Shown: positions 1,902-52,786 of the stretch, in pieces
How the letters are laid out: each line of letters begins with the position of its first letter
Numbering within the stretch: the stretch's first letter is position 1
IMG/VR virus record: IMGVR_UViG_3300046479_000013
Span: 1 to 61,806 of that record
Length of the DNA stretch: 61,806 nucleotides
Strand: one strand, 5' to 3'
Origin: a virus
Taxonomy: Duplodnaviria > Caudoviricetes
Position numbers and translations under genes: made by a program
Notes under the pieces: model-generated
Told to the model about the DNA's origin: nothing
The model's database searches: none
What the model saw: the letters and a program-made list of their open reading frames with translations, nothing else

Positions 1902-3257
1902 ATGGACGTAGTTCGTAAGACAATTCTGAATTTGCTGGCTGAAGGTAACGAGGACATTCGGCGATCAGTGATCAACCAGATCCCCTTTGAGGTCCGAGAC
2001 CTCCTACATAGCTTGCACATGAAGAGCCACAAGAACAATGGCTTCTTCCTGGTCGGTGGCTGCATCCGGGACATGCTCCTGGGTCGCACGCCCAAGGACT
2101 GGGACATGGTGACCACGGAACCCTATGTGGTCAAGGGCCTCTACCCGATGATCGGAAAGGACTTTCCGGTGTGGCAAGTCAAGCTGGTCAATCATGTCGT
2201 GGAACTGGCCTCGGCCCGCACAGAGCGGAAGATCGGAGACGGACATACCGGCTTTGAATGTACCGAGACCAACGACATTAATCAGGACCTGCTCCGGCGG
2301 GACCTCACGATCAACGCCATTGCCTTGAGCGACAGCGGAGATATCTTCTATGCTCCCAATGCGTTGGAAGACCTCAAGGATGGTGTGCTCCGGCATGTCA
2401 CCAAGGCCTTCGCCGAGGATCCTCTGCGAGTGTTCCGGGTGGCCCGGTTCGCGGCCCAGCTGGGTTTCACGGTGCATCCTCACACGACCAGGTTCATGTT
2501 CATGCTGCGTCATGAGCTGAAGACCCTGAGTCCGGATCGAGTCCGGGTGGAACTGGAACGGGCCTTGATGGCTCCCCATCCCAGCCAATTCTTCCGGGTG
2601 CTCAAAGAGGCTCGCTGCTTGGATCACTGGTTCCCCGAAGTGGAGAGCCTGATCGGATCAGAACATAGCCTCAAACATCACCCGGAGGGGGACGCCTTCG
2701 AGCATGTCATGCTGTGCATGGAGACCATGCGCAAGAACCCCTCCTGCACGCTGGATCATATGTTGGCCATCCTGGGCCATGACTTCGGCAAGGGTCTCAC
2801 CGATCCTACGATGTGGCCTAAGCACATAGGTCATGAGCAAGGCGGGATCCCGTTGATCATCAACTTCTGCAACCGTCTGGGCTACGGCAGACAGACGATC
2901 CATCAGATGACCCAGGTGGCTGCCAATCACATGGTGATGCATAAGATCCAAGAACTCCGGCCTAGCACGCTGCGCAAGCTGCTCTTGGACACCCGACGTT
3001 CTGTGTTAGGCATCAAGGGTTTCGGCGATGTGTGTCAGGCTGACCACAATGGTCGGGGTGGTTTTGAGAACTATGAATACAAGAGCACTCAATACCTCCT
3101 GGACGCCATGGAGGCTCTCAAGGCCGTGAAGATCGTTCCGGGTTTGACTCCAACGCAAATTGAACAGACTCAGAACATCACCATGAAAGCCTGGAAGAAC
3201 CAATACCTCAAGGACCCCGAGAACGTACGGGGAACGTGCGTGGAGCACAAACCTTGA
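1902..3257 (+). CDS. cca: multifunctional CCA-adding tRNA nucleotidyltransferase with HD domain
   Basis: LVGGCIRD..DWD, DLLRRDLTINA, EDPLRVFR, HHPEGD, HDFGK motifs. Confidence 0.95.
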   Translation: MDVVRKTILNLLAEGNEDIRRSVINQIPFEVRDLLHSLHMKSHKNNGFFLVGGCIRDMLLGRTPKDWDMVTTEPYVVKGLYPMIGKDFPVWQVKLVNHVVELASARTERKIGDGHTGFECTETNDINQDLLRRDLTINAIALSDSGDIFYAPNALEDLKDGVLRHVTKAFAEDPLRVFRVARFAAQLGFTVHPHTTRFMFMLRHELKTLSPDRVRVELERALMAPHPSQFFRVLKEARCLDHWFPEVESLIGSEHSLKHHPEGDAFEHVMLCMETMRKNPSCTLDHMLAILGHDFGKGLTDPTMWPKHIGHEQGGIPLIINFCNRLGYGRQTIHQMTQVAANHMVMHKIQELRPSTLRKLLLDTRRSVLGIKGFGDVCQADHNGRGGFENYEYKSTQYLLDAMEALKAVKIVPGLTPTQIEQTQNITMKAWKNQYLKDPENVRGTCVEHKP

Positions 3258-29729: not shown

Positions 29730-31301
29730 TTAGCCCTTGGCGAAGGCCGTGACCACAGCCGGGGCCGCAGTGTCGAAGCCGACCACATCGAGCATGCCGC
29801 CGTCACTGGGATCGGCGATGGAGAACTCGGTGGCGGTCATTCCGTAGACGACCAGCTTGGCGGGGATGCCCATGGCATTGCGGTAGGACTTCAGCGCCTG
29901 GAAGGGGTGGATTGCGCCAGCCCAGGTCTCGTTGTCGGTGTAGACCTCGAAGACCTCGACGGGGATCTTGTTCTTCTGGGCCCAGACCATCGGCAGGGAG
30001 CAATCGGTGCCTCCCATGGAGATCCCGGCGATCCGCTTGGTGACGGCGTCGAGGCTCATCTGCTTGGTGAGCGGGATGTCCACGAGCCGAGTGGAGAAGC
30101 CCATGGTGTGATGCTGCTCTTCCACACGCACACGGAGCATCGCCATCGCAGCGGAGGCCTGAGCCGGGGTGAGCGGCAGACCGGCGATGTTGCCCCAGCC
30201 CATGGAGCCGGAGACATCGAGGGCGCTGAGGGTCTTCTTGCCCATCGGTTCGACGGTGCCGAAGGAAAGGTAGAAGGCCTCGTCGAGAGCGGAGACGATC
30301 TTGGGGTTGGCGGACCAGGTGAGACTTCCCTTGTCGCCGTGACCCTGCTCGTAGGTCTTGAGGGCCACGAGGAGGTTGAGCGGATGCAGACGGGCCTTCT
30401 TGATGGCCTCCTGATCACCGAGGAGCTTGGTGATCCGCTGGGTGGCATCGCTCAGAGGGCCGGTGAGACCCAGGGCACTGAGACGACCGAGGTTGCGGAC
30501 CATGGCACCCATGGGGATGTTCTCCATCAGTGCTTCCCAGACCTTGGACTCTTTGAGCCATTCGGTGGGCAGGGCCTCCCAGGGGAGCCGGTTGTCACGC
30601 ACGAGGCTGATGACTTCCTTGGCGCTCTGGGTCTCCTGCAGCCGGATGAAGGCTTCGATCATGGGATGGAGCTGATTCTCCACTTCCTTACCGACGGACC
30701 AGCGGAACATGTCGTTCATCACGCCAGTTGCGGAAGGATGGGCGAGGCGCAGAACGTCCCGGTGGGTCCAGCCGCCACGCTGACGGTACTTGATCAGCTG
30801 CAGGGCCACCTGGTCCTCGGTCTTGTTGGTGTAGAACTTACTCACACCACGACGGAGACCTGCGGACCAGCCGCGCATGGCAACCACGGCGTCGCAGAAC
30901 TGGAAGATGTGAGTCCCGATTCGGCACACCTGGGGGATGGAGGCGTATGCGGCCTTCTTGGTGTTCTCGTCACCGTAGGTGGCGCAGAGGGCGAGGACGA
31001 AGATCGCGGGATCGTTCTTGGGTGCACGACCGGCGTCGGAGACCTGCACGACGAACTGCACCACGGCCTCACCGTTGTGCTTGATCATCTCGATGATGGT
31101 CTTGGCAGCGTCCTGGGTCATCTTGCGTTCCCCGGCGTAGTAGCTGCCCTTCTCGGTTCCCAGGATGAGGAACCTGTTCAACAGCGCCTGGTCGTCGATC
31201 TTGAAGACGAAACCACCAGCGTTGTTCTTGACCTGGCTCTTACCGAAGACCTCTTCCTGCTGAGAAGTGACCTTCTGAGAAACGTGTTCCTGGTAACGCA
31301 T
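29730..31301 (-). CDS. rsr: Ro60/Rsr RNA-binding protein (TROVE + vWA)
   Basis: QVKNNAGGFVF, RFLILG, KYRQRGGWTHRDVLRLAHP, AMVRNLG, LDVSGSM, GGTDCSLPM, TDNETWAG, GMLDVVGFD; AAGGAGG RBS. Confidence 0.96.
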   Translation of the reverse strand: MRYQEHVSQKVTSQQEEVFGKSQVKNNAGGFVFKIDDQALLNRFLILGTEKGSYYAGERKMTQDAAKTIIEMIKHNGEAVVQFVVQVSDAGRAPKNDPAIFVLALCATYGDENTKKAAYASIPQVCRIGTHIFQFCDAVVAMRGWSAGLRRGVSKFYTNKTEDQVALQLIKYRQRGGWTHRDVLRLAHPSATGVMNDMFRWSVGKEVENQLHPMIEAFIRLQETQSAKEVISLVRDNRLPWEALPTEWLKESKVWEALMENIPMGAMVRNLGRLSALGLTGPLSDATQRITKLLGDQEAIKKARLHPLNLLVALKTYEQGHGDKGSLTWSANPKIVSALDEAFYLSFGTVEPMGKKTLSALDVSGSMGWGNIAGLPLTPAQASAAMAMLRVRVEEQHHTMGFSTRLVDIPLTKQMSLDAVTKRIAGISMGGTDCSLPMVWAQKNKIPVEVFEVYTDNETWAGAIHPFQALKSYRNAMGIPAKLVVYGMTATEFSIADPSDGGMLDVVGFDTAAPAVVTAFAKG

Positions 31302-42474: not shown

Positions 42475-42550
42475 TGGTAGCCCCGGTGGAATTCGAATCC
42501 ACGACGCACGGATTTAGAGTCCATCGCTCTGACCACTGAGCTACGGGGCC
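42475..42550 (-). tRNA. amber suppressor tRNA (CTA anticodon)
   Basis: Canonical 76-nt cloverleaf, loop CT-CTA-AA, A73-CCA. Confidence 0.88.
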
Positions 42551-44464: not shown

Positions 44465-44576
44465 TTCTTAACGATAAGAGGATTGGAATCGGAGAACGAG
44501 AAAGCTTTTCAGGCGATCTCGGTTGGGATTGAACCAACTTTAACCAGATAACCGATTGCCGTTCGACCGTTAAGAA
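44465..44576 (-). ncRNA. Y-RNA-like element 1
   Basis: TTCTTAACG-GTCGAACG...GGTTATC...T-arm GTTGG-TTCAATC-CCAAC...TTAT-CGTTAAGAA. Confidence 0.7.
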
Positions 44577-47273: not shown

Positions 47274-47286
47274 CTCTTTCTATTAG

Positions 47287-47373
47287 AGCCAAGAGAGGGA
47301 TTTGAACCCTCGACGGAGATTGCTCTCAAGGGATTTGCAGTCCCTACCCTTCGACCACTTGGGACACCTTGGC
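47287..47373 (-). tRNA. tRNA-Cys(GCA) with long variable arm, CCA not encoded
   Basis: Loop CT-GCA-AA, U73, GAGA-GCAA-TCTC variable hairpin, 3' end CTA. Confidence 0.8.
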
Positions 47374-47745
47374 ATGTTCTGTTACCTTGAAACCATCATT
47401 GCGATCGATGGCCATCAGTTCATACCCGACCATGTCAAAATCGTCAAGGGCCAGGAGGACTGATTCGTGATCGAAACACTTACAGGAATAGACGTCCATC
47501 TGGATCATTCCAGGAGAAGTCTCATCCCAAACATGAATCGCAATGTGTGAGGTCTCGATACCAATCTGCGCAGTCAACCCTTTGTTGCCTGGATTGTCCA
47601 CATAGACGGTTCGAGGTTCGATGCATACCTTCATGTCAATGGCAGATACGAGATCTCTAAGCCACTGATTCATTTCATCCTCGCTTCTCGGAGGGTTCAT
47701 GACCCAAGCCTTCACGAGCAAGTGCTGATGGAACAACGCTCCCAT
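47344..47745 (-). CDS. speD: S-adenosylmethionine decarboxylase-like proenzyme
   Basis: GLTAQIGIETSHIAIHVW...MDVYSC; stop codon lies inside tRNA-Cys. Confidence 0.8.
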   Translation of the reverse strand: MGALFHQHLLVKAWVMNPPRSEDEMNQWLRDLVSAIDMKVCIEPRTVYVDNPGNKGLTAQIGIETSHIAIHVWDETSPGMIQMDVYSCKCFDHESVLLALDDFDMVGYELMAIDRNDGFKVTEHAKVSQVVEG

Positions 47746-47803
47746 ATTCTCCCCTTTTGTAGTTAATACAAACAGGAAAGGGAAGTCAACACTTGAATAT
47801 TAT

Positions 47804-47935
47804 TTCTAGGTAAGAGGGCGCAAAAGGATGTGGGCTCCTGACTTACCACTTGTCCACATCCCCGTGAAGTGGGGATGGCACGGATTCGAACCGGCGAATG
47901 GGAGCATGAGGTAACCCTTTTGCAACGACCTAGAA
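47804..47935 (-). ncRNA. Y-RNA-like element 2 with circularly permuted tRNA domain
   Basis: TTCTAG-GTCG..GCAAAAGG-GTTACC..T arm, CATCCCC-ACTTCAC-GGGGATG, D arm..CCTTTTGC..TTAC-CTAGAA. Confidence 0.75.
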
Positions 47936-47939
47936 TATT

Positions 47940-48026
47940 TGGCGGAAGGTGAGAGGATCGAACTCCCGTATCCGTGAGGATGCTTCTGGTTAGCAACCAG
48001 ACCCATTACCACTCTGGCAACCTTCC
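47940..48026 (-). tRNA. tRNA-Ser(GCT)
   Basis: Long variable arm, loop TT-GCT-AA, G73-CCA. Confidence 0.92.
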
Positions 48027-48031
48027 GTAAA

Positions 48032-48121
48032 TGGCGGAGGGGACAGGATTTGAACCTGCGGGACGCTTGCGCGCCCACCACCTTTCCGAGATGGAGCTAT
48101 CGACCACTCTGCCACCCCTCC
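48032..48121 (-). tRNA. tRNA-Ser(GGA)
   Basis: Long variable arm, loop TC-GGA-AA, G73-CCA. Confidence 0.88.
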
Positions 48122-48299
48122 TAGTCGTGCCCTGGTTAGATTTGGTTAGCAATCACCAGGGCGTAGTAATGACAAACACAGACGCCTATCGTTTCAGCCT
48201 TCTGTACCGCTAACCTGTCATTCTCGTAAGATTTCGCAAGGAACATTCATGCCTGGTCCCTTGCCGGTATGTCGGTGACTTTGCAGCGTAGTTCCGTCC

Positions 48300-48473
48300 T
48301 GGCTAGCCCAAGGGAGTTGAACCCCTGCCCTCCTTGCCTTGCGGGAGAAGGGTTTTCCATGGCGTGACGTGTAGCGCCCGACTATAGACCTATGGGAGGA
48401 CTCCGTCCAGTCCCGTTACACCCATTGATGGAAACCAGCTCTAAGGTCAGAGATGACTGGCAACCATGGCCCA
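48300..48473 (-). ncRNA. large tRNA-like RNA with expanded anticodon-position domain
   Basis: TGGGCCA/TGGGCTA-GCCA ends, AGGGG-TTCAACT-CCCT T arm, TTTCCAT/ATGGAAA stem enclosing ~65 nt. Confidence 0.45.
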
Positions 48474-48590
48474 TCCATTCCCAAGGCACAAGGCCTCCTA
48501 CGGGATCCAAGTGGGTGCGGGACCATTCTCTAGCGGCCCACTCGGGTCTTCTCCCAAGCCGGGGTGCCAGCTGAAGAAGATAGAACTACT

Positions 48591-48683
48591 TCTGAAGATA
48601 AGGCAGTGTCGAAGGATTTAATTAGCCAGGTGGCCTTGCGGCACGGAGGCTTGGACGGTAACCCTTTGACTTCGACCTTCAGA
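48591..48683 (-). ncRNA. Y-RNA-like element 3
   Basis: TCTGAAG-GTCGAAG-TCAAAGG-GTTACC...CCTTCGAC..TTAT-CTTCAGA; contains GNCGAAG. Confidence 0.75.
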
Positions 48684-48697
48684 TGATCTGAAGAACT

Positions 48698-48822
48698 TTT
48701 CTGAGGTAAGAGGCGAGGAGGGTTGGGTGCTGCTTTGGTACTTCTGTGCTGCTAGGTACTGCTTGGTTGCGTTAAACTTCAACGCTATCAGGGAGATAAC
48801 CCTATCTCAACGACCTCAGAAA
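48698..48822 (-). ncRNA. Y-RNA-like element 4
   Basis: TTTCTGAG-GTCG..AGGGTTATC...CCCT..TTAC-CTCAGAAA. Confidence 0.7.
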
Positions 48823-49601
48823 TTAGTGGACATACCCGGATTCGAACCGAGGACCAGGGAGCTACCCTTTTGACCAGAATGGAACACTCTCAATCCGTGA
48901 GGAGGGGTCTCGATCCCCAGTGCCCTATGCCCATGAACTTTGGTGAGAAGATTTATGAAGTCCTTCCCGTATTTCATCTGGACATAATCCAGTATTGGTT
49001 TCATTTCTTGTTTTTCAAGGACCTGAATTGGATGAGGAAACGCTTGGAGTTTATACTCATGTTGAGAATTCTTCCAACCCTTTATCTCGATATAACTGCC
49101 GTCTCCAAGAATAAAATCAGGATGGTATTTCCTAGAGATTCCTTCTGCGTCCAGGTAGTCAAACCCCTGTTCGTTTCTCCTAAAGGATACTCCATGATCT
49201 ATGCTGAAGAGGATCCAAGCAAGTTCCCAACTAGAATCACACCAGATTCCAACATAGAAACCTTTCTTACCTCTACCTCCGTGTCTCATCCCTCCACCCC
49301 AAGCCTTTGGATCTTTCTTCCGGGCTTCTTGAAGGAGGATAGCCCTATTCCTTTTAGACCAGAGCTTAGAACATTCTCTGGAACAAAATACAATGGACCT
49401 ATATCCTTTATCATGACGATGAAACAAAGAACCACATTCTCTACAGAATCTGTCCACACAGAGATTATTTTGATTCTCATGAAGAGAGTTTGAGATCTTA
49501 TTTCTGGTCTCTGGGCTTAGAGTCCGATTCCGATTGGAACAAGAAGGGCTACAGAAATTTGGTTTCTGAGTTTCTTTCCCGCAATATTTACATTTATTCA
49601 T
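48816..49601 (-). CDS. homing-type endonuclease (Zn fingers + PD-(D/E)XK-like)
   Basis: CKYCG, FCSPSC, DSSWELAW...YHPDFIL..YIEIKGW; related to 40984..41733; C-terminus overlaps RNA genes. Confidence 0.82.
   Translation of the reverse strand: MNKCKYCGKETQKPNFCSPSCSNRNRTLSPETRNKISNSLHENQNNLCVDRFCRECGSLFHRHDKGYRSIVFCSRECSKLWSKRNRAILLQEARKKDPKAWGGGMRHGGRGKKGFYVGIWCDSSWELAWILFSIDHGVSFRRNEQGFDYLDAEGISRKYHPDFILGDGSYIEIKGWKNSQHEYKLQAFPHPIQVLEKQEMKPILDYVQMKYGKDFINLLTKVHGHRALGIETPPHGLRVFHSGQKGSSLVLGSNPGMSTNF
48824..48932 (-). ncRNA. tRNA-like RNA with Ala-type acceptor and non-canonical core
   Basis: GGGCATA/TATGTCC-A (G3:U70), TTCGAAT T arm, no normal D/anticodon arms, ends CTA. Confidence 0.45.
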
Positions 49602-49639
49602 TTCCACCTCAGGTATCACCTAGGAAGCAGAAGTTCGAA

Positions 49640-49714
49640 TGGTGACCCCGGAGAATTTCGAAATCTCGACCGGATGCGTGTAAAGCATCTGCTCTGCCTC
49701 TGAGCTACGGTGCC
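49640..49714 (-). tRNA. tRNA-Val(TAC)
   Basis: Cloverleaf, loop TT-TAC-AC, CCA. Confidence 0.87.
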
Positions 49715-49731
49715 AATATTTATTATATGAA

Positions 49732-49916
49732 TTTGTCTTGATAAAAGGTCGGCGTCCCAGATAGTATATTTAACGGCGCGGCTACCAGACTTCGCCACCC
49801 CTCGATGAAGTCGAGGGAGGAGGATTTGAACCTCCGACAGAGCAGGGTATATACAAGGCCCATTGCTCCAACCGTGCCCCAAGCAGGATAAGGGACATCC
49901 AGTCGACCAAGACAAA
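49732..49916 (-). ncRNA. Y-RNA-like element 5 with circularly permuted tRNA domain
   Basis: TTTGTCTTG-GTCGA..GTCCC-TTATC...T arm, TCCCTCGA-CTTCA-TCGAGGGG, D arm...GGGAC..TTAT-CAAGACAAA. Confidence 0.75.
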
Positions 49917-49923
49917 ACTGTTT

Positions 49924-49994
49924 CTCAAAGATAAGGGAACTCCAAGACGGAGGCATCATTAACAGGATAACCGTCAGCGGAAACGACCTTTGAG
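49924..49994 (-). ncRNA. Y-RNA-like element 6 (minimal)
   Basis: CTCAAAG-GTCG..GACGG-TTATC-CTGTTAA..CCGTC..TTAT-CTTTGAG. Confidence 0.7.
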
Positions 49995-49998
49995 TGAT

Positions 49999-50073
49999 TG
50001 GTGCAGGGGGAAGGATTTGAACCCTCGATTCCAGGACTTGTACCCGAAGCTTTGAACACTAAGCTACCCCTGC
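49999..50073 (-). ncRNA. tRNA-like RNA, non-canonical anticodon loop (TACAAGT)
   Basis: Perfect acceptor, D and T arms, ACCA; lacks U33. Confidence 0.65.
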
Positions 50074-50082
50074 TAGATAAAA

Positions 50083-50173
50083 TGGTGGGTAGGGATGGAT
50101 TCGAACCACCGACTACCAGGGTTTTACGCCTGGCGCTCTCAAGTCCTTGCGGAACCAACTGAGCTACCTCCCC
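50083..50173 (-). ncRNA. tRNA-like RNA with hairpin inserted in D loop and 8-nt anticodon-position loop
   Basis: TCC-GCAA-GGA in D loop; CCAGG-CGTAAAAC-CCTGG; ACCA. Confidence 0.65.
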
Positions 50174-50177
50174 AGAG

Positions 50178-50290
50178 TGACCCTGCCTTGATACTCGCTC
50201 TTTGGACCCGGCTGCGTGCAATAGCGGTTTCCACTGCGGGTATCCACTCCAACCTTATGCGTCTGTTATAGAGACAAGGTTACAGGGTCG
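50178..50290 (-). ncRNA. candidate rod-shaped RNA with large central bubble
   Basis: GACCCTG/CAGGGTC and CCTTG/CAAGG closing stems, TGGA/TCCA and CCCG/CGGG distal stems. Confidence 0.35.
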
Positions 50291-50294
50291 TGAT

Positions 50295-50372
50295 TGGTTG
50301 GGAGGGAAGGATTTGAACCCCCGACCTCTTAGGCTTGCGGCCTAGGTGCTCTGAACACTGAGCTACCTCCCA
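50295..50372 (-). ncRNA. tRNA-like RNA, anticodon arm replaced by longer stem with CGCAA loop
   Basis: TGGGAGG/CCTCCCA acceptor, TAGGC-CGCAA-GCCTA, ACCA. Confidence 0.65.
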
Positions 50373-50377
50373 ATTGA

Positions 50378-50793
50378 TGGTGGACCTGGAGGGAATCGAA
50401 CCCTCGTCCAAGAAGACTGACCTTGATAGGAATTACACGCTTCCTTGACCTTAGACCTCCTGGAGCCGGTGGTCAAGGAACCACTCCGGAGGGATCTGCG
50501 TTCGTCACCATTCGGGCCGCAACCCCTGTGATGGTCTATTCTCTAGCACAGAATCGGTAGGATTGCTCCACCCTATCTATGTTCGGAGTCAAGCGAGACT
50601 CATGACTCCTATCCTGCTTACGCTACTAGAGCGAGTTCGGAACCGGCGCGGACGCTGGAACCAATGAAGCGGGAGAGGGAACTAGCAACAAAGTTGGCAG
50701 TTTTGTTTCACATGATTATTAAAGTCGGCCATCATGCTTCCGCTGCGTGCCTATACAAGACCTAAATCAACCTGTCGAAACCGGGTCAGGCCC
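50378..50793 (-). ncRNA. ssrA: tmRNA
   Basis: 5' GGGCCTGACCCGGTTTCGAC, 3' GGACGAGGGTTCGATTCCCTCCAGGTCCACCA, G3:U70; tag ORF 50698-50618 ANFVASSLSRFIGSSVRAGSELALVA*. Confidence 0.92.
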
Positions 50794-50827
50794 CTTTGAA
50801 CTTCCTCGAACTAAGTAAGAGGAAGAA

Positions 50828-51568
50828 ATGACATATTACCTATTGTATAAGACAACATGCCAGATTACTGGAAAATTCTACTGCGGAATGCACAAGACAG
50901 AAGAACTGGAAGATGGATATCTCGGATCAGGAAAACGCCTCCGGGCTTCAGTTGCAAAGTATGGAAAGGAGAACTTCACCCGAGAGCTTATTTCTACCCA
51001 CGATAGCCAAGAAACTCTTTCCAAGGCTGAAGAGGAATTGATCACCCCCGAGATGCTATCTAACCCCATGTGTCTGAATCTTGTTCCAGGCGGGAAAGGA
51101 GGCTCAGGACCAGGGAAGCTTGGTGCTTCACTTGGGGGTCAAGCCTATGCTAAGGCGCTTGAGGAGAACTCTGCATTCAGAGAAGTTAAGATACCCCAAC
51201 TCTGTGCTGCCGGGAAGCTTGGAGGAGCCTTGGGAAGCAACCTTCAAATTGGAGAAAGGGGAAAGATTTCTGCTCAAACTCCAGAGGCCAGATCCAAGAG
51301 AATCTCTACCATGAGAGAACGGGGTCACCAGAAAGGTGCGAAGAACAGTCAGTCTGGAACCACGTGTATCTATCACCCAGAGCACGGAAACAAGAGGATA
51401 CCTCAACAAGAAATAGATTCCTGGATCACTCAAGGATGGTTACCCGGAGCTAATATTGGAACCTGTTTCATTCATCATCCTGAAGCGTTGAAGGGGAAAC
51501 TCATTCCCAAAGGAGACCTGGATTCTTGGACCGATCAAGGTTGGATCCCTGGAATGAAACCCAGATAG
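50828..51568 (+). CDS. GIY-YIG (Seg-like) homing endonuclease
   Basis: LLYKTTCQITGKFYCGMH...DGYLGSG...YGKENF...NLVPGG; two C-terminal xxxGW.PG repeats. Confidence 0.88.
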   Translation: MTYYLLYKTTCQITGKFYCGMHKTEELEDGYLGSGKRLRASVAKYGKENFTRELISTHDSQETLSKAEEELITPEMLSNPMCLNLVPGGKGGSGPGKLGASLGGQAYAKALEENSAFREVKIPQLCAAGKLGGALGSNLQIGERGKISAQTPEARSKRISTMRERGHQKGAKNSQSGTTCIYHPEHGNKRIPQQEIDSWITQGWLPGANIGTCFIHHPEALKGKLIPKGDLDSWTDQGWIPGMKPR

Positions 51569-51737
51569 CGCCGATTCTTGTCTTCGCCGCAAGCGTCTAG
51601 GACAATCTAATTGATAGACTACAGCGATCTACATCGGGAGATCAATCGTGCAGCCAGAGGGGGACAAGGGCTGTCCCACCGCCTCCACCATCTGGTCATA
51701 GGGGCCAGAACCATCCTCTCAAGGAGTGATTGGATAG

Positions 51738-51856
51738 TTTCTCAGATTAAAACGGGGTTGGGGTTTACGCGCTCTATCCACTAAGCTACATGGTGGGATT
51801 CGAACCCACGCCTCGCTGTTCGTAGCAGTTAACCAACACACCAACGACCTGAGGAA
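51738..51856 (-). ncRNA. Y-RNA-like element 7 (T arm joined to D arm, acceptor stem deleted)
   Basis: CTCAG-GTCG..GGTTAAC..GTGGG-TTCGAAT-CCCAC-CATG-TAGCTTAGTGGATAGAGC..TAAT-CTGAG. Confidence 0.7.
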
Positions 51857-51861
51857 TAGTT

Positions 51862-51997
51862 TCTCTGATGAAAACCGGAATGGAATTTTACGCGCTCTAC
51901 CAGACTGAGCTATACGAGGAAGAGATGCCCTCGCAGATGGATTTGAACCACCGACCACGCTCTTAACAGGAGATAATCCATTACCAACGACCAGAGA
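51862..51997 (-). ncRNA. Y-RNA-like element 8 with circularly permuted tRNA domain
   Basis: TCTCTG-GTCG..AATGGA-TTATC..T arm, TGCGAGGG/TCCTCGTA closed acceptor, D arm..TCCATT..TCAT-CAGAGA. Confidence 0.75.
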
Positions 51998-52031
51998 TAT
52001 TATTGTCACCGCACCAGGTGAACTAGATAAG

Positions 52032-52118
52032 TGGGGAGGGATGGATTCGAACCACCGACCTCTAAGGATTTGACCCCTTAGTGCTCTGCGCCCGAAGGCC
52101 CAACTGAGCTACCTCCCC
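52032..52118 (-). ncRNA. tRNA-like RNA with hairpin inserted in D loop, paralog of 50083..50173
   Basis: GGGGAGG/CCTCCCC, GCC-TTCG-GGC insert, CTAAGG-GGTCAAAT-CCTTAG; CCA not encoded. Confidence 0.65.
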
Positions 52119-52192
52119 TTTGATAGTTGCCCCTCAACCCACCACATGTGAGGGGCCAGCAGCGGGAAAGGAGGGAAACCGCTACTGAGAAT

Positions 52193-52260
52193 TGGCGAAG
52201 ATAAGGAGACCAAGATCGGGTTTCTTCAAAGGGTAACCGATTCCTGAACGACCTTCGCTA
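52193..52260 (-). ncRNA. Y-RNA-like element 9 (minimal)
   Basis: TAGCGAAG-GTCG..ATCGG-TTACC..CCGAT..TTAT-CTTCGCCA. Confidence 0.7.
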
Positions 52261-52721
52261 GATAGGGCCGGGTGAGAATCTCGATGTTGTTACCCGGATC
52301 GGAGCAGGACTACAAGCCTGTTCCTTCGCAACATCATATCAGTCCGCTTCGACCCCTGCCTGGGGAGGATGAACTGAGGAGCCTACGGGGTGTTCGCCGA
52401 ATCCCCGCCATCGTTCCCCTCTGTAAGTCAAGTTGGGGCCACTCTAGTTACCCTATCCCTCAAGAACCCAGCGGTAAACACTCTGTGGCTCTCATGTATC
52501 CCCTCATATTCCCTCACAAGGCTCGATGGATGGGGCACCACGGAGCCGAGGTAGCTAAAGCTTTCTGGCGCAGGACGTATAGCGGACCTGATGCGCATAA
52601 CCCTGGCACGAGGGGCATCCTTGTAATCTAGAGCTAGATCCTATCACTAATATGAACACTCTGGTTCTCATCTCCGGAGCTTGCACCAAGGGGGAGCGAT
52701 TGGAAAACCCCTTGATCTTAT

Positions 52722-52786
52722 GGTCTCGATGAGTTGGCGAAGACGGGTATATAAGCCAGATAACCGTTCCTCAGCGACCGAGAGCC
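52722..52786 (-). ncRNA. Y-RNA-like element 10 (minimal)
   Basis: TCTCG-GTCG..ACGG-TTATC..CCGT..TCAT-CGAGA. Confidence 0.65.

Follow-up and report, generated by a model that had tools for sequence, protein, structure and literature searches.

Y RNAs are regarded as adaptors of modular build, in which the Ro60 protein is held at one end and the other end selects what Ro60 is brought to. The Ro60 site of Y RNAs is a lower stem of 7 bp or more that carries one bulged C, opposed by a bulge in the other strand; in vertebrate Y RNAs and nematode stem-bulge RNAs, the loop domain starts with a conserved UUAUC sequence (PMC4726728). The likeness of YrlA RNAs to circularly permuted tRNAs whose acceptor stem is closed has been pointed out (10.1101/312249; PMC4201824). 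The crystal structure of YrlA from Salmonella Typhimurium shows a tRNA-like L-shape, and a model in which YrlA originated from dimeric tRNA transcripts has been quoted (10.1101/312249). A survey of YrlA RNAs listed candidates in 254 bacteria and 22 phages, with at most three per phage (Table S2), and Ro60 binding as well as modification by TruB and DusA, which place pseudouridine and dihydrouridine, have been reported (PMC4201824). The seed alignments of the survey contain a 5' part of the form GG(U/C)CGAA...GGUUAYC in actinobacteria, cyanobacteria and mycobacteriophage ET08 (PMC4201824, supplementary texts 1 and 2). In Thermus phage phiLo, a phage-encoded Ro60 and Yrl RNAs form complexes with host PNPase, which have been studied biochemically (PMC12135203). 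Here, we describe a set of Y RNA genes in a viral genome sequence of 61,806 nucleotides (Caudoviricetes; IMG/VR record IMGVR_UViG_3300046479_000013), the whole of which is referred to below as the window.

Three elements of the window, E47804, E49732 and E51862, are probably YrlA-type Y RNAs that belong to a family of ten paralogous genes inside the tRNA/tmRNA cluster of the phage. They do not represent a new kind of RNA, since YrlA RNAs of bacteria and phages are built in the same way. A preliminary description of this DNA, made from the sequence alone, had read the three elements as circularly permuted tRNA modules inside Y-like RNAs; this reading identifies the kind of RNA correctly, but it has been published before. 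The novelty lies in the scale of the family, whose ten genes sit inside a tRNA array at distances from the Ro60 gene that reach 21.5 kb, and in a form that lacks the acceptor stem.

On the minus strand, the three elements display the order T arm, 7-bp closed acceptor-like hairpin and D arm, all inside a Y RNA-type helix (Table 1). The inner part of each begins with the 3' strand of an anticodon-stem equivalent and a variable region, which are followed by a 5-bp T stem with a UUCRAAU loop, the 7-bp hairpin, a U with one further nucleotide (a single U in E49732), a D arm with GG in its loop and the 5' strand of the anticodon-stem equivalent. The linker between hairpin and D arm is UG in E47804 and UA in E51862, and a 5-bp GCUCC/GGAGC stem of E47804 opens into the Y helix. 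U8, G15 with C48, the D-loop GG and the UUCRAAU T loop are found in all three. The tabulated stems thus bear out the arrangement of T arm, sealed acceptor hairpin and D arm that had been proposed at 47804, 49732 and 51862; the loops quoted for the hairpins (ACTTCAC, CTTCA and CATCTCT) are exactly those found, and the start coordinates given for the Y elements lie within 3 nt of the tabulated outer ends.

The permuted architecture was evaluated with ARAGORN by treating each of the ten natural elements as a circle, with an intron permitted in the anticodon loop, and by processing 300 dinucleotide shuffles of each element. E49732 (score 105.3) and E51862 (101.3) were called at the default threshold, and E47804 (94.9) was called only at the relaxed setting -ps90. 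None of the 3000 shuffles was called at default and 16 of 3000 were called at -ps90. A circular call of a fourth element, E51738 (101.3, default), was rejected as an artefact because 11 nt are used twice. With the Rfam YrlA model (RF02553), E51862 scores 31.5 bits (model positions 22–89, E-value 3e-5 on 286 bases searched) in an alignment that spans precisely its T arm, closed stem and D arm; E51738 scores 21.8 bits and E49732 17.6 bits.

Tandem tRNA genes could be misread as such elements, and the YrlA survey warns that dimeric tRNAs score as false YrlAs (PMC4201824); in the window, the Rfam tRNA model gives 24.8 bits, below its threshold of 29, for a stretch that links the D side of E51862 with the T side of E51738. 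However, ARAGORN in linear mode and Rfam at threshold find no tRNA that overlaps E47804, E49732 or E51862, and the trio are therefore not tandem tRNA genes. Moreover, what precedes each T arm and follows each D arm is the Y scaffold and not the remainder of a tRNA, and neither E47804 nor E49732 has an anticodon loop. The same observations apply to permuted tRNA genes that would be processed into working tRNAs, and we attach almost no credence to an explanation of either kind. Permuted tRNA genes of the red-alga type were also rejected as candidates: joining the ends gives, instead of a normal anticodon arm with a 7-nt loop, a 7–11 bp helix with bulges and an upper stem, about 50–85 nt in all, and ARAGORN must treat the Y-helix part as an intron of 54–85 nt. 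A tmRNA, including the permuted two-piece form, was rejected as well, as it scored only 11–14 bits, on the T arm and closed stem of E47804; the regular tmRNA lies elsewhere in the window.

The family to which we assign the trio is defined by one scaffold that is common to all ten elements. An uninterrupted closing helix of 7–11 bp is present in 10/10 elements with a different sequence in each, and the helices show compensating changes. In all ten, the inner end of the helix reads GGU in the 5' strand and AYC in the 3' strand, followed by an unpaired C and then a G. The 3' strand of the scaffold contains a bulge of several nucleotides, often CUU or UUU, next to which lies the upper stem, and the sequence (G)GUUAYC opens the inner part directly after the upper stem in nine of the ten. 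The stems were tabulated directly; in MAFFT alignments, made for the ten elements and for eight cores, some of them are misplaced. The combination of GGUCG, G[GA]UUA[UCA]C and a closing helix of at least 7 bp occurs nine times on the minus strand of the window and not at all on its plus strand, compared with a mean of 0.34 and a maximum of 2 in 100 dinucleotide shuffles of the window. A Y RNA finder based on the helix alone is unspecific (21 matches per window strand), and becomes specific only when the GGUUAYC motif is added. GUCG is found in all ten elements, where the next two bases are UU in six, AA in two (E48590 and E44465), AC in one and CU in one.

The closing helix with its bulged C is predicted to be the Ro60-binding end. 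The presumed protein partner, a Ro60 orthologue, is encoded by an intact open reading frame (ORF) of the window on the same strand and is 40–45% identical to actinophage proteins annotated as 'Ro-like RNA binding protein' among the matches listed. The helix is better described as a Ro60 site than as a generic stem, because the elements of the window retain GGUCG, the bulged C and GGUUAYC whether or not they have a tRNA part, and so do relatives that adjoin Ro60 and published Ro60-bound YrlAs. This conservation bears on the proposal that the RNAs act independently of Ro60 as tRNA decoys, which would soak up or misdirect host tRNA-binding enzymes or tRNA-cleaving defense nucleases, with a closing helix that serves for stability only. 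Such a role would suit elements that sit far from the Ro60 gene, in the array of a phage with 30 tRNAs and a tmRNA, but the closing helix is not generic in the sense just given, and the modules have no anticodon loop, the usual target of anticodon nucleases. We consider decoys of this kind very unlikely. As a separate observation, (G)GUUAYC recalls the animal UUAUC motif; it is kept in 5/5 elements of a related contig (L004, 795–1361), and is also seen in more distant Ro60 loci (L009, L010, L052 and L021) and in the published actinobacterial and cyanobacterial YrlA seeds.

Table 1. Y RNA elements, their component parts and associated genes. Element positions are outer ends; all positions refer to the window except those in the two last rows.
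Feature	Position	Strand	Remarks
E47804, Y RNA with complete tRNA-like module	47804-47935	-	132 nt; 8-bp closing helix UUCUAGGU/ACCUAGAA, bulged C, GGUUACC
E47804, T arm	47878-47895	-	GCCGG/UUCGAAU/CCG(U)GC; one bulged U in 3' strand
E47804, closed acceptor-like hairpin	47857-47877	-	CAUCCCC-ACUUCAC-GGGGAUG; 7 bp
E47804, D arm	47840-47854	-	GAC/AAGUGGUAA/GUC; 3 bp
E49732, Y RNA with tRNA-like module and long variable-arm hairpin	49732-49916	-	185 nt; 11-bp closing helix
E49732, hairpin at variable-arm position	49839-49869	-	31 nt
E49732, T arm	49819-49835	-	GGAGG/UUCAAAU/CCUCC
E49732, closed acceptor-like hairpin	49798-49818	-	UCCCUCG(A)-CUUCA-(U)CGAGGGG; 7 bp (8 with A-U pair)
E49732, D arm	49780-49796	-	GGC/GAAGUCUGGUA/GCC; 3 bp, 11-nt loop
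E51862, Y RNA with complete tRNA-like module	51862-51997	-	136 nt; 8-bp closing helix
E51862, small hairpin upstream of T arm	51960-51972	-	CUC-CUGUUAA-GAG; YrlA V stem-loop, anticodon-arm-like
E51862, T arm	51936-51952	-	GGUGG/UUCAAAU/CCAUC
E51862, closed acceptor-like hairpin	51913-51935	-	UGCGAGG(G)-CAUCUCU-(U)CCUCGUA; 7 bp (8 with G-U pair)
E51862, D arm	51894-51910	-	GCUC/AGUCUGGUA/GAGC; 4 bp
E51738, Y RNA without acceptor hairpin	51741-51853	-	tandem paralogue of E51862
E51738, T arm	51793-51809	-
E51738, D arm	51771-51786	-
E44465, Y RNA with T-like arm, no D arm	44465-44576	-
E44465, T-like arm	44522-44538	-	GUUGG/UUCAAUC/CCAAC
E44465, second hairpin	44497-44521	-	directly follows T-like arm
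E49924, minimal Y RNA	49924-49994	-	stem-bulge-stem-loop; no tRNA part
E52193, minimal Y RNA	52195-52258	-	stem-bulge-stem-loop; no tRNA part
E52722, minimal Y RNA	52724-52783	-	stem-bulge-stem-loop; no tRNA part
E48700, Y RNA without tRNA part	48698-48822	-	distinct C/A-rich inner module
E48590, Y RNA without tRNA part	48591-48683	-	another inner module; 5' motif GUCGAAG
Ro60 orthologue, presumed protein partner	29730-31301	-	523 aa, intact ORF; Pfam TROVE 6.6e-45, vWA_Ro60 1.7e-64
CCA-adding enzyme/poly(A) polymerase family protein	1902-3257	+	451 aa; Pfam PolyA_pol 1.2e-19, PolyA_pol_RNAbd 1.5e-13
tmRNA, regular	50378-50793	-	97.1 bits
Atuin (OK040794.2), unannotated YrlA-type RNA	L017 2296-2450		between tRNA-Thr and tRNA-Phe, downstream of annotated Ro-like gene
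Atuin (OK040794.2), unannotated YrlA-type RNA	L017 2461-2599		between tRNA-Thr and tRNA-Phe, downstream of annotated Ro-like gene

The other seven elements carry reduced or different inner parts, and the ten together comprise three with a complete module, one without the acceptor stem, one with a T-like arm only and five without a tRNA part. In E51738, a 4-nt linker (CAUG) joins the T and D arms in place of the acceptor hairpin. E51738 aligns end to end with its upstream neighbor E51862 except for that hairpin (score 42, compared with a maximum of 25 in 200 shuffles), and represents a tandem duplicate of E51862 from which the acceptor hairpin was deleted. As a deletion paralogue, it indicates that at least one step of the series is a deletion in a duplicated gene. 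The loss of the acceptor stem from E51738, with both arms retained, had been described correctly, as had the persistence of the T-like arm alone in E44465, where the D arm is absent, and the lack of a tRNA part in the elements at 49924, 52193 and 52722, in which a search for the T-loop motif found none. E48700 and E48590 are not named in the preliminary description of these modules. The 14-nt spacer between these two (48684–48697) can fold with the start of E48590 into an alternative hairpin, UCUUCAGA-UCA-UCUGAAGG, which RNAfold favors over the closing helix of E48590 when flanking sequence is included.

Genes with the same scaffold are also found in other viral genomes. The closest relative compared is a 30-kb viral fragment with a Ro60 protein 51% identical to that of the window; it contains five such genes within 700 nt upstream of Ro60, on the Ro60 strand. 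One of the five, G1_Y4 of the related contig, has a GUAA-capped 7-bp stem between its T and D arms and aligns with E51862 with a score of 40. In two more distant Ro60 loci, the motif adjoins Ro60 too, and a Ro60 protein 71% identical to that of the window exists on contigs of up to 198 kb; scans of viral contigs and of metagenomes did not recover the corresponding contig. The best match of the E49732 core in the phage collection is an unannotated gap 450 nt downstream of a Ro-like gene, in the tRNA array of Arthrobacter phage Atuin. The two Atuin elements share the design of E49732 and are called by ARAGORN as circles with scores of 104.7 and 107.8, and the Rfam YrlA score there is 31.7 bits, likewise under the gathering score of 69. 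The closed stem of Atuin differs from that of E49732 by one compensated change and has an identical loop. A pattern scan for E51862 counterparts in viral contigs returned 38 loci, in only two of which (the related contig and L052) a T loop follows the motif; most of the remaining loci look like chance or coding matches. A megablast search of 47700–52300 against the phage collection gave no match, and the 267-aa ORF inside the array has no relative among the viral contigs.

Two observations on Atuin are recorded here. A possible third T arm lies near L017 2645. In addition, the acceptor-stem loop reads ACUUCAC in E47804 (47864–47870) and ACUUCAU in both E49732 (49806–49810) and Atuin (L017 ~2527–2535); with this recurrence of ACUUCAY, the loop seems to be a conserved sequence rather than a free spacer.

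The YrlA RNAs of M. smegmatis and phage ET08 share with the trio the order of T arm, closed acceptor-like stem and D arm, the Ro60-binding helix in which the RNA ends, a Ro60 gene on the same strand and a 5' part of the form GG(U/C)CG..GGUUAYC; ET08 has GGUUACCUCAU in common with E47804, and the M. smegmatis stem is also 7 bp long. They differ in that the trio has CGUU or CGAC in place of CGAA, that the D stems of E47804 and E49732 depart from the conserved GCUC/GAGC, and that Ro60 lies about 160 nt away there, compared with 13.2–21.5 kb in the window. Several YrlA-type genes per phage are known from Caulobacter phage CcrColossus, which has three tandem candidates, but the ten genes of the window contrast with at most three per phage (PMC4201824, Table S2), and, unlike those of CcrColossus and Atuin, the set in the window also includes RNAs that lack the acceptor stem, the D arm or the whole tRNA part. 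Salmonella YrlA likewise builds its L-shape from the T, D and closed acceptor stems (10.1101/312249); its acceptor stem is 6 bp instead of 7 bp, and its Ro60 site is recognizable by the 5' strand only (PMC4201824), whereas both strands and the bulged C are clear in the window.

Likeness extends to vertebrate Y RNAs and nematode stem-bulge RNAs, which have the lower stem of at least 7 bp, the single bulged C, the opposite bulge and UUAUC (PMC4726728). These RNAs contain no tRNA-like module, and the likeness does not imply common descent; bacterial Y RNAs have been called non-homologous to the vertebrate clades (Kowalski and Krude 2015, PMC4726728). Yrl1 and Yrl2 of phage phiLo resemble the RNAs of the window as phage Y-like RNAs with a stem-bulge-stem structure and a CGAA-type motif that accompany a phage Ro60 (PMC12135203). 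In contrast to the window, there are two such RNAs in phiLo, adjoining the Ro60 gene, and the main text of that report contains 'tRNA' twice and 'YrlA' not at all, with no tRNA-like module described in the passages covered (PMC12135203). Overall, the picture of what YrlA-type RNAs are is unchanged by the window.

Several points weigh against the assignment of the ten elements to one Ro60-associated family with YrlA-type members. All Rfam YrlA scores (0–31.5 bits) are well under the gathering score, and E47804 has no match to this model. GNCGAA is found in only two of the ten elements, and the tRNA-like trio carries GUCGUUG or GUCGAC. The distance between Ro60 and the Y genes, although on the same strand, far exceeds the 4 kb within which candidates were accepted in the survey (PMC4201824). 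Promoter-like sites (7 observed, 8.6 expected) and terminator-like sites (8 observed, 9.4 expected) show nothing above chance, and contigs from three RNA libraries overlap no Y element, although such contigs cannot show ends or absence. As the window shows, surveys confined to 4 kb around Ro60, or to the Rfam threshold, miss most phage Y RNAs.

The series of complete, acceptor-less, T-arm-only and tRNA-free forms probably arose for the most part through the duplication of entire Y genes, whose inner modules were then deleted or replaced. Whole-gene duplication is favored because one scaffold is common to all ten RNAs. The preliminary description had instead suggested separate tRNA donors and a possible repeated making of the modules from tandem tRNA genes. 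Under such independent births, which correspond to the published dimeric-tRNA model with multiple origins, every tRNA-like module would have its own source, a distinct tRNA dimer within the array of the phage. Tandem tRNAs with spacers of 4–14 nt do exist in the window, and other phages have junctions between neighboring tRNA genes with which the module cores align in colinear order; this is a matter of resemblance and not of descent. The E47804 core aligns with the tRNA-Tyr|tRNA-Gln junction of Ruegeria phage V13 (89% coverage, 75% identity, E-value 0.6). The E51862 core is covered to at least 80% in 25 of 974 matching records; among the matches listed, 17/22 fall on two annotated tRNAs (e.g. 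Asn|Thr of phage P1) and 5/22 are without tRNA annotation. Furthermore, the modules differ in type and in the site at which they open. E47804 opens at the loop, keeps a 5-bp anticodon-stem equivalent and has a D loop like that of the window tRNA-Gln. In E51862 and G1_Y4, the loop of the small hairpin, CUGUUAA, equals the anticodon loop of the window tRNA-Asn, and ARAGORN reads an Asn anticodon loop. E49732, with its 3-bp D stem, 11-nt D loop and long variable-arm hairpin, is like class II tRNAs.

Against this, when the module halves were compared with the 30 tRNAs of the window by local alignment, the best scores were 28–37, whereas unrelated window tRNAs gave medians of 28 (5' halves) and 31 (3' halves). 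As the half-module scores merely match those of unrelated window tRNAs, they do not allow a donor to be named. Both halves have the same best tRNA in one of four modules (E51738), compared with 4/30 for real tRNAs. The single scaffold of all ten RNAs, the counterpart of E51862 in another contig and the match between the closed stems of E49732 and Atuin also argue against independent births; the two latter observations indicate that the lineages predate the window phage. Together with the paralogy of E51738, they point to old duplicating lineages rather than to recent births in the array. Separate capture from the phage's own tRNAs is thus unlikely, and the proposal of distinct donors finds no support in the half-module scores.

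A more elaborate combination would have three separate captures, from a Gln-like, an Asn-like and a class II-like tRNA, into one Ro60-binding scaffold, with the 7-bp stems opened by RNase P and CCA-tailed by the phage enzyme so that a live acceptor end is tethered to Ro60. We regard this combination as decidedly improbable. If separate captures were true, the Gln-like module would have been opened in the anticodon loop, the Asn-like module beside a retained CUGUUAA hairpin, and the class II-like module would have kept its variable arm; the YrlA 'V' stem-loop in general would then be a relic anticodon arm. Irrespective of the captures, the V stem-loop of YrlA may be such a relic, judging from its loop sequences. 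The V hairpin loop is CUGUUAA in E51862 (51960–51972) and in G1_Y4 (L004 ~1026–1040), and published seeds have CUUCUAA, CUCAUAA and AUUGAAA at this place, most of which fit the anticodon-loop pattern (PMC4201824).

Under the favored reading of a duplicated family of Ro60-binding RNAs, the Y RNAs would be transcribed together with the tRNAs and released by tRNA-processing nucleases. Such co-production is suggested by position, because three Y genes start 4 nt past the CCA of the upstream tRNA, a spacing equal to that between tandem tRNAs of the window. By analogy with the family, Ro60 would bind the closing helix, and the tRNA-like part would fold into an L that is recognized by tRNA enzymes. 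The inner part of each Y RNA would be a variable effector module: the tRNA-like elbow may recruit a tRNA-recognizing partner, or may tether Ro60 to host PNPase as in the known Ro60/Y RNA/PNPase particles. [quoted passage not shown]

Some molecules may also be opened by RNase P and given a CCA, a possibility raised by acceptor stems of exactly 7 bp. In its full form, this alternative holds that RNase P cuts the acceptor loop, the 3' end is trimmed and CCA is added, and that the mature product is a two-piece, Ro60-bound RNA with a free acceptor end. All three stems are exactly 7 bp and are stacked on a 5-bp T stem, the phage encodes a nucleotidyltransferase of the CCA-adding type, and the loop ACUUCAY is kept across E47804, E49732 and Atuin. 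A precedent is YrlA from M. smegmatis, the only characterized YrlA with a 7-bp stem and singled out for this stem: RNase P cleaves the RNA in vitro, and in vivo it is both cleaved and provided with a CCA tail (PMC4201824). However, cleavage by RNase P was not detected for Salmonella YrlA and Deinococcus Yrn1 (PMC4201824), the acceptor loops of the window encode no CCA after the discriminator position, and E51738, as well as the shorter GUAA-capped stem of the relatives, suggests that the design works without such a cut site. We consider two-piece RNAs possible, though not probable. The preliminary description had called the modules 'non-chargeable tRNA-elbow mimics'. The elbow mimicry, of YrlA type and within a Ro-type helix, stands, but a sealed and non-chargeable state is not assured, because the M. 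smegmatis YrlA with its 7-bp stem is processed as above (PMC4201824) and the phage has a CCA-adding-type enzyme of its own.

The 61.8-kb window also encodes a tail-collar protein, GIY-YIG and HNH endonucleases, NAMPT and a UvrD-type helicase. Its 30 tRNA genes (ARAGORN) are all on the minus strand, and the second of its tRNA clusters, at 44–53 kb, contains the Y RNA elements, which are also on the minus strand. The DNA of the window recurs in peat metagenome runs, and the phage is uncultured.

Among the minor observations in this region, about 460 nt on the minus strand (48125–48590), between tRNA-Ser(gga) and E48590, are without a gene call and possibly encode an abundant unknown RNA. Positions 48274–48563 are covered by near-identical contigs (0–1 differences) from RNA libraries of three studies, and the tmRNA is likewise covered by RNA-library contigs. 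The interval 48125–48590 has no Rfam match, and the fold z-scores of the two large gaps that adjoin Y genes are -1.55 (48125–48590) and +0.72, and therefore give no sign of unusual structure in these gaps. A fragment resembling a T arm with an acceptor 3' strand lies at 48828–48860 (minus strand), 5 nt upstream of E48700 and inside the end of the ORF at 48816–49619; no matching 5' strand was found on the minus strand of the window.

Unusual tRNA-like genes were also noted on the minus strand. Two, at 50086–50173 and 52031–52118, appear by eye to contain an extra hairpin of about 14 nt within the D loop; the former was found by Rfam (47.9 bits) and not by ARAGORN, and the latter was called as tRNA-Leu(cag) with the anticodon at position 31. 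The tRNA at 42475–42550 has the anticodon CUA (labeled Pyl by ARAGORN) and is thus of the amber-suppressor type; the phage ORFs are otherwise normal under table 11. An 88-nt tRNA at 47286–47373 with the anticodon GCA (Cys) has, by eye, an apparent long variable arm, which is unusual for tRNA-Cys.

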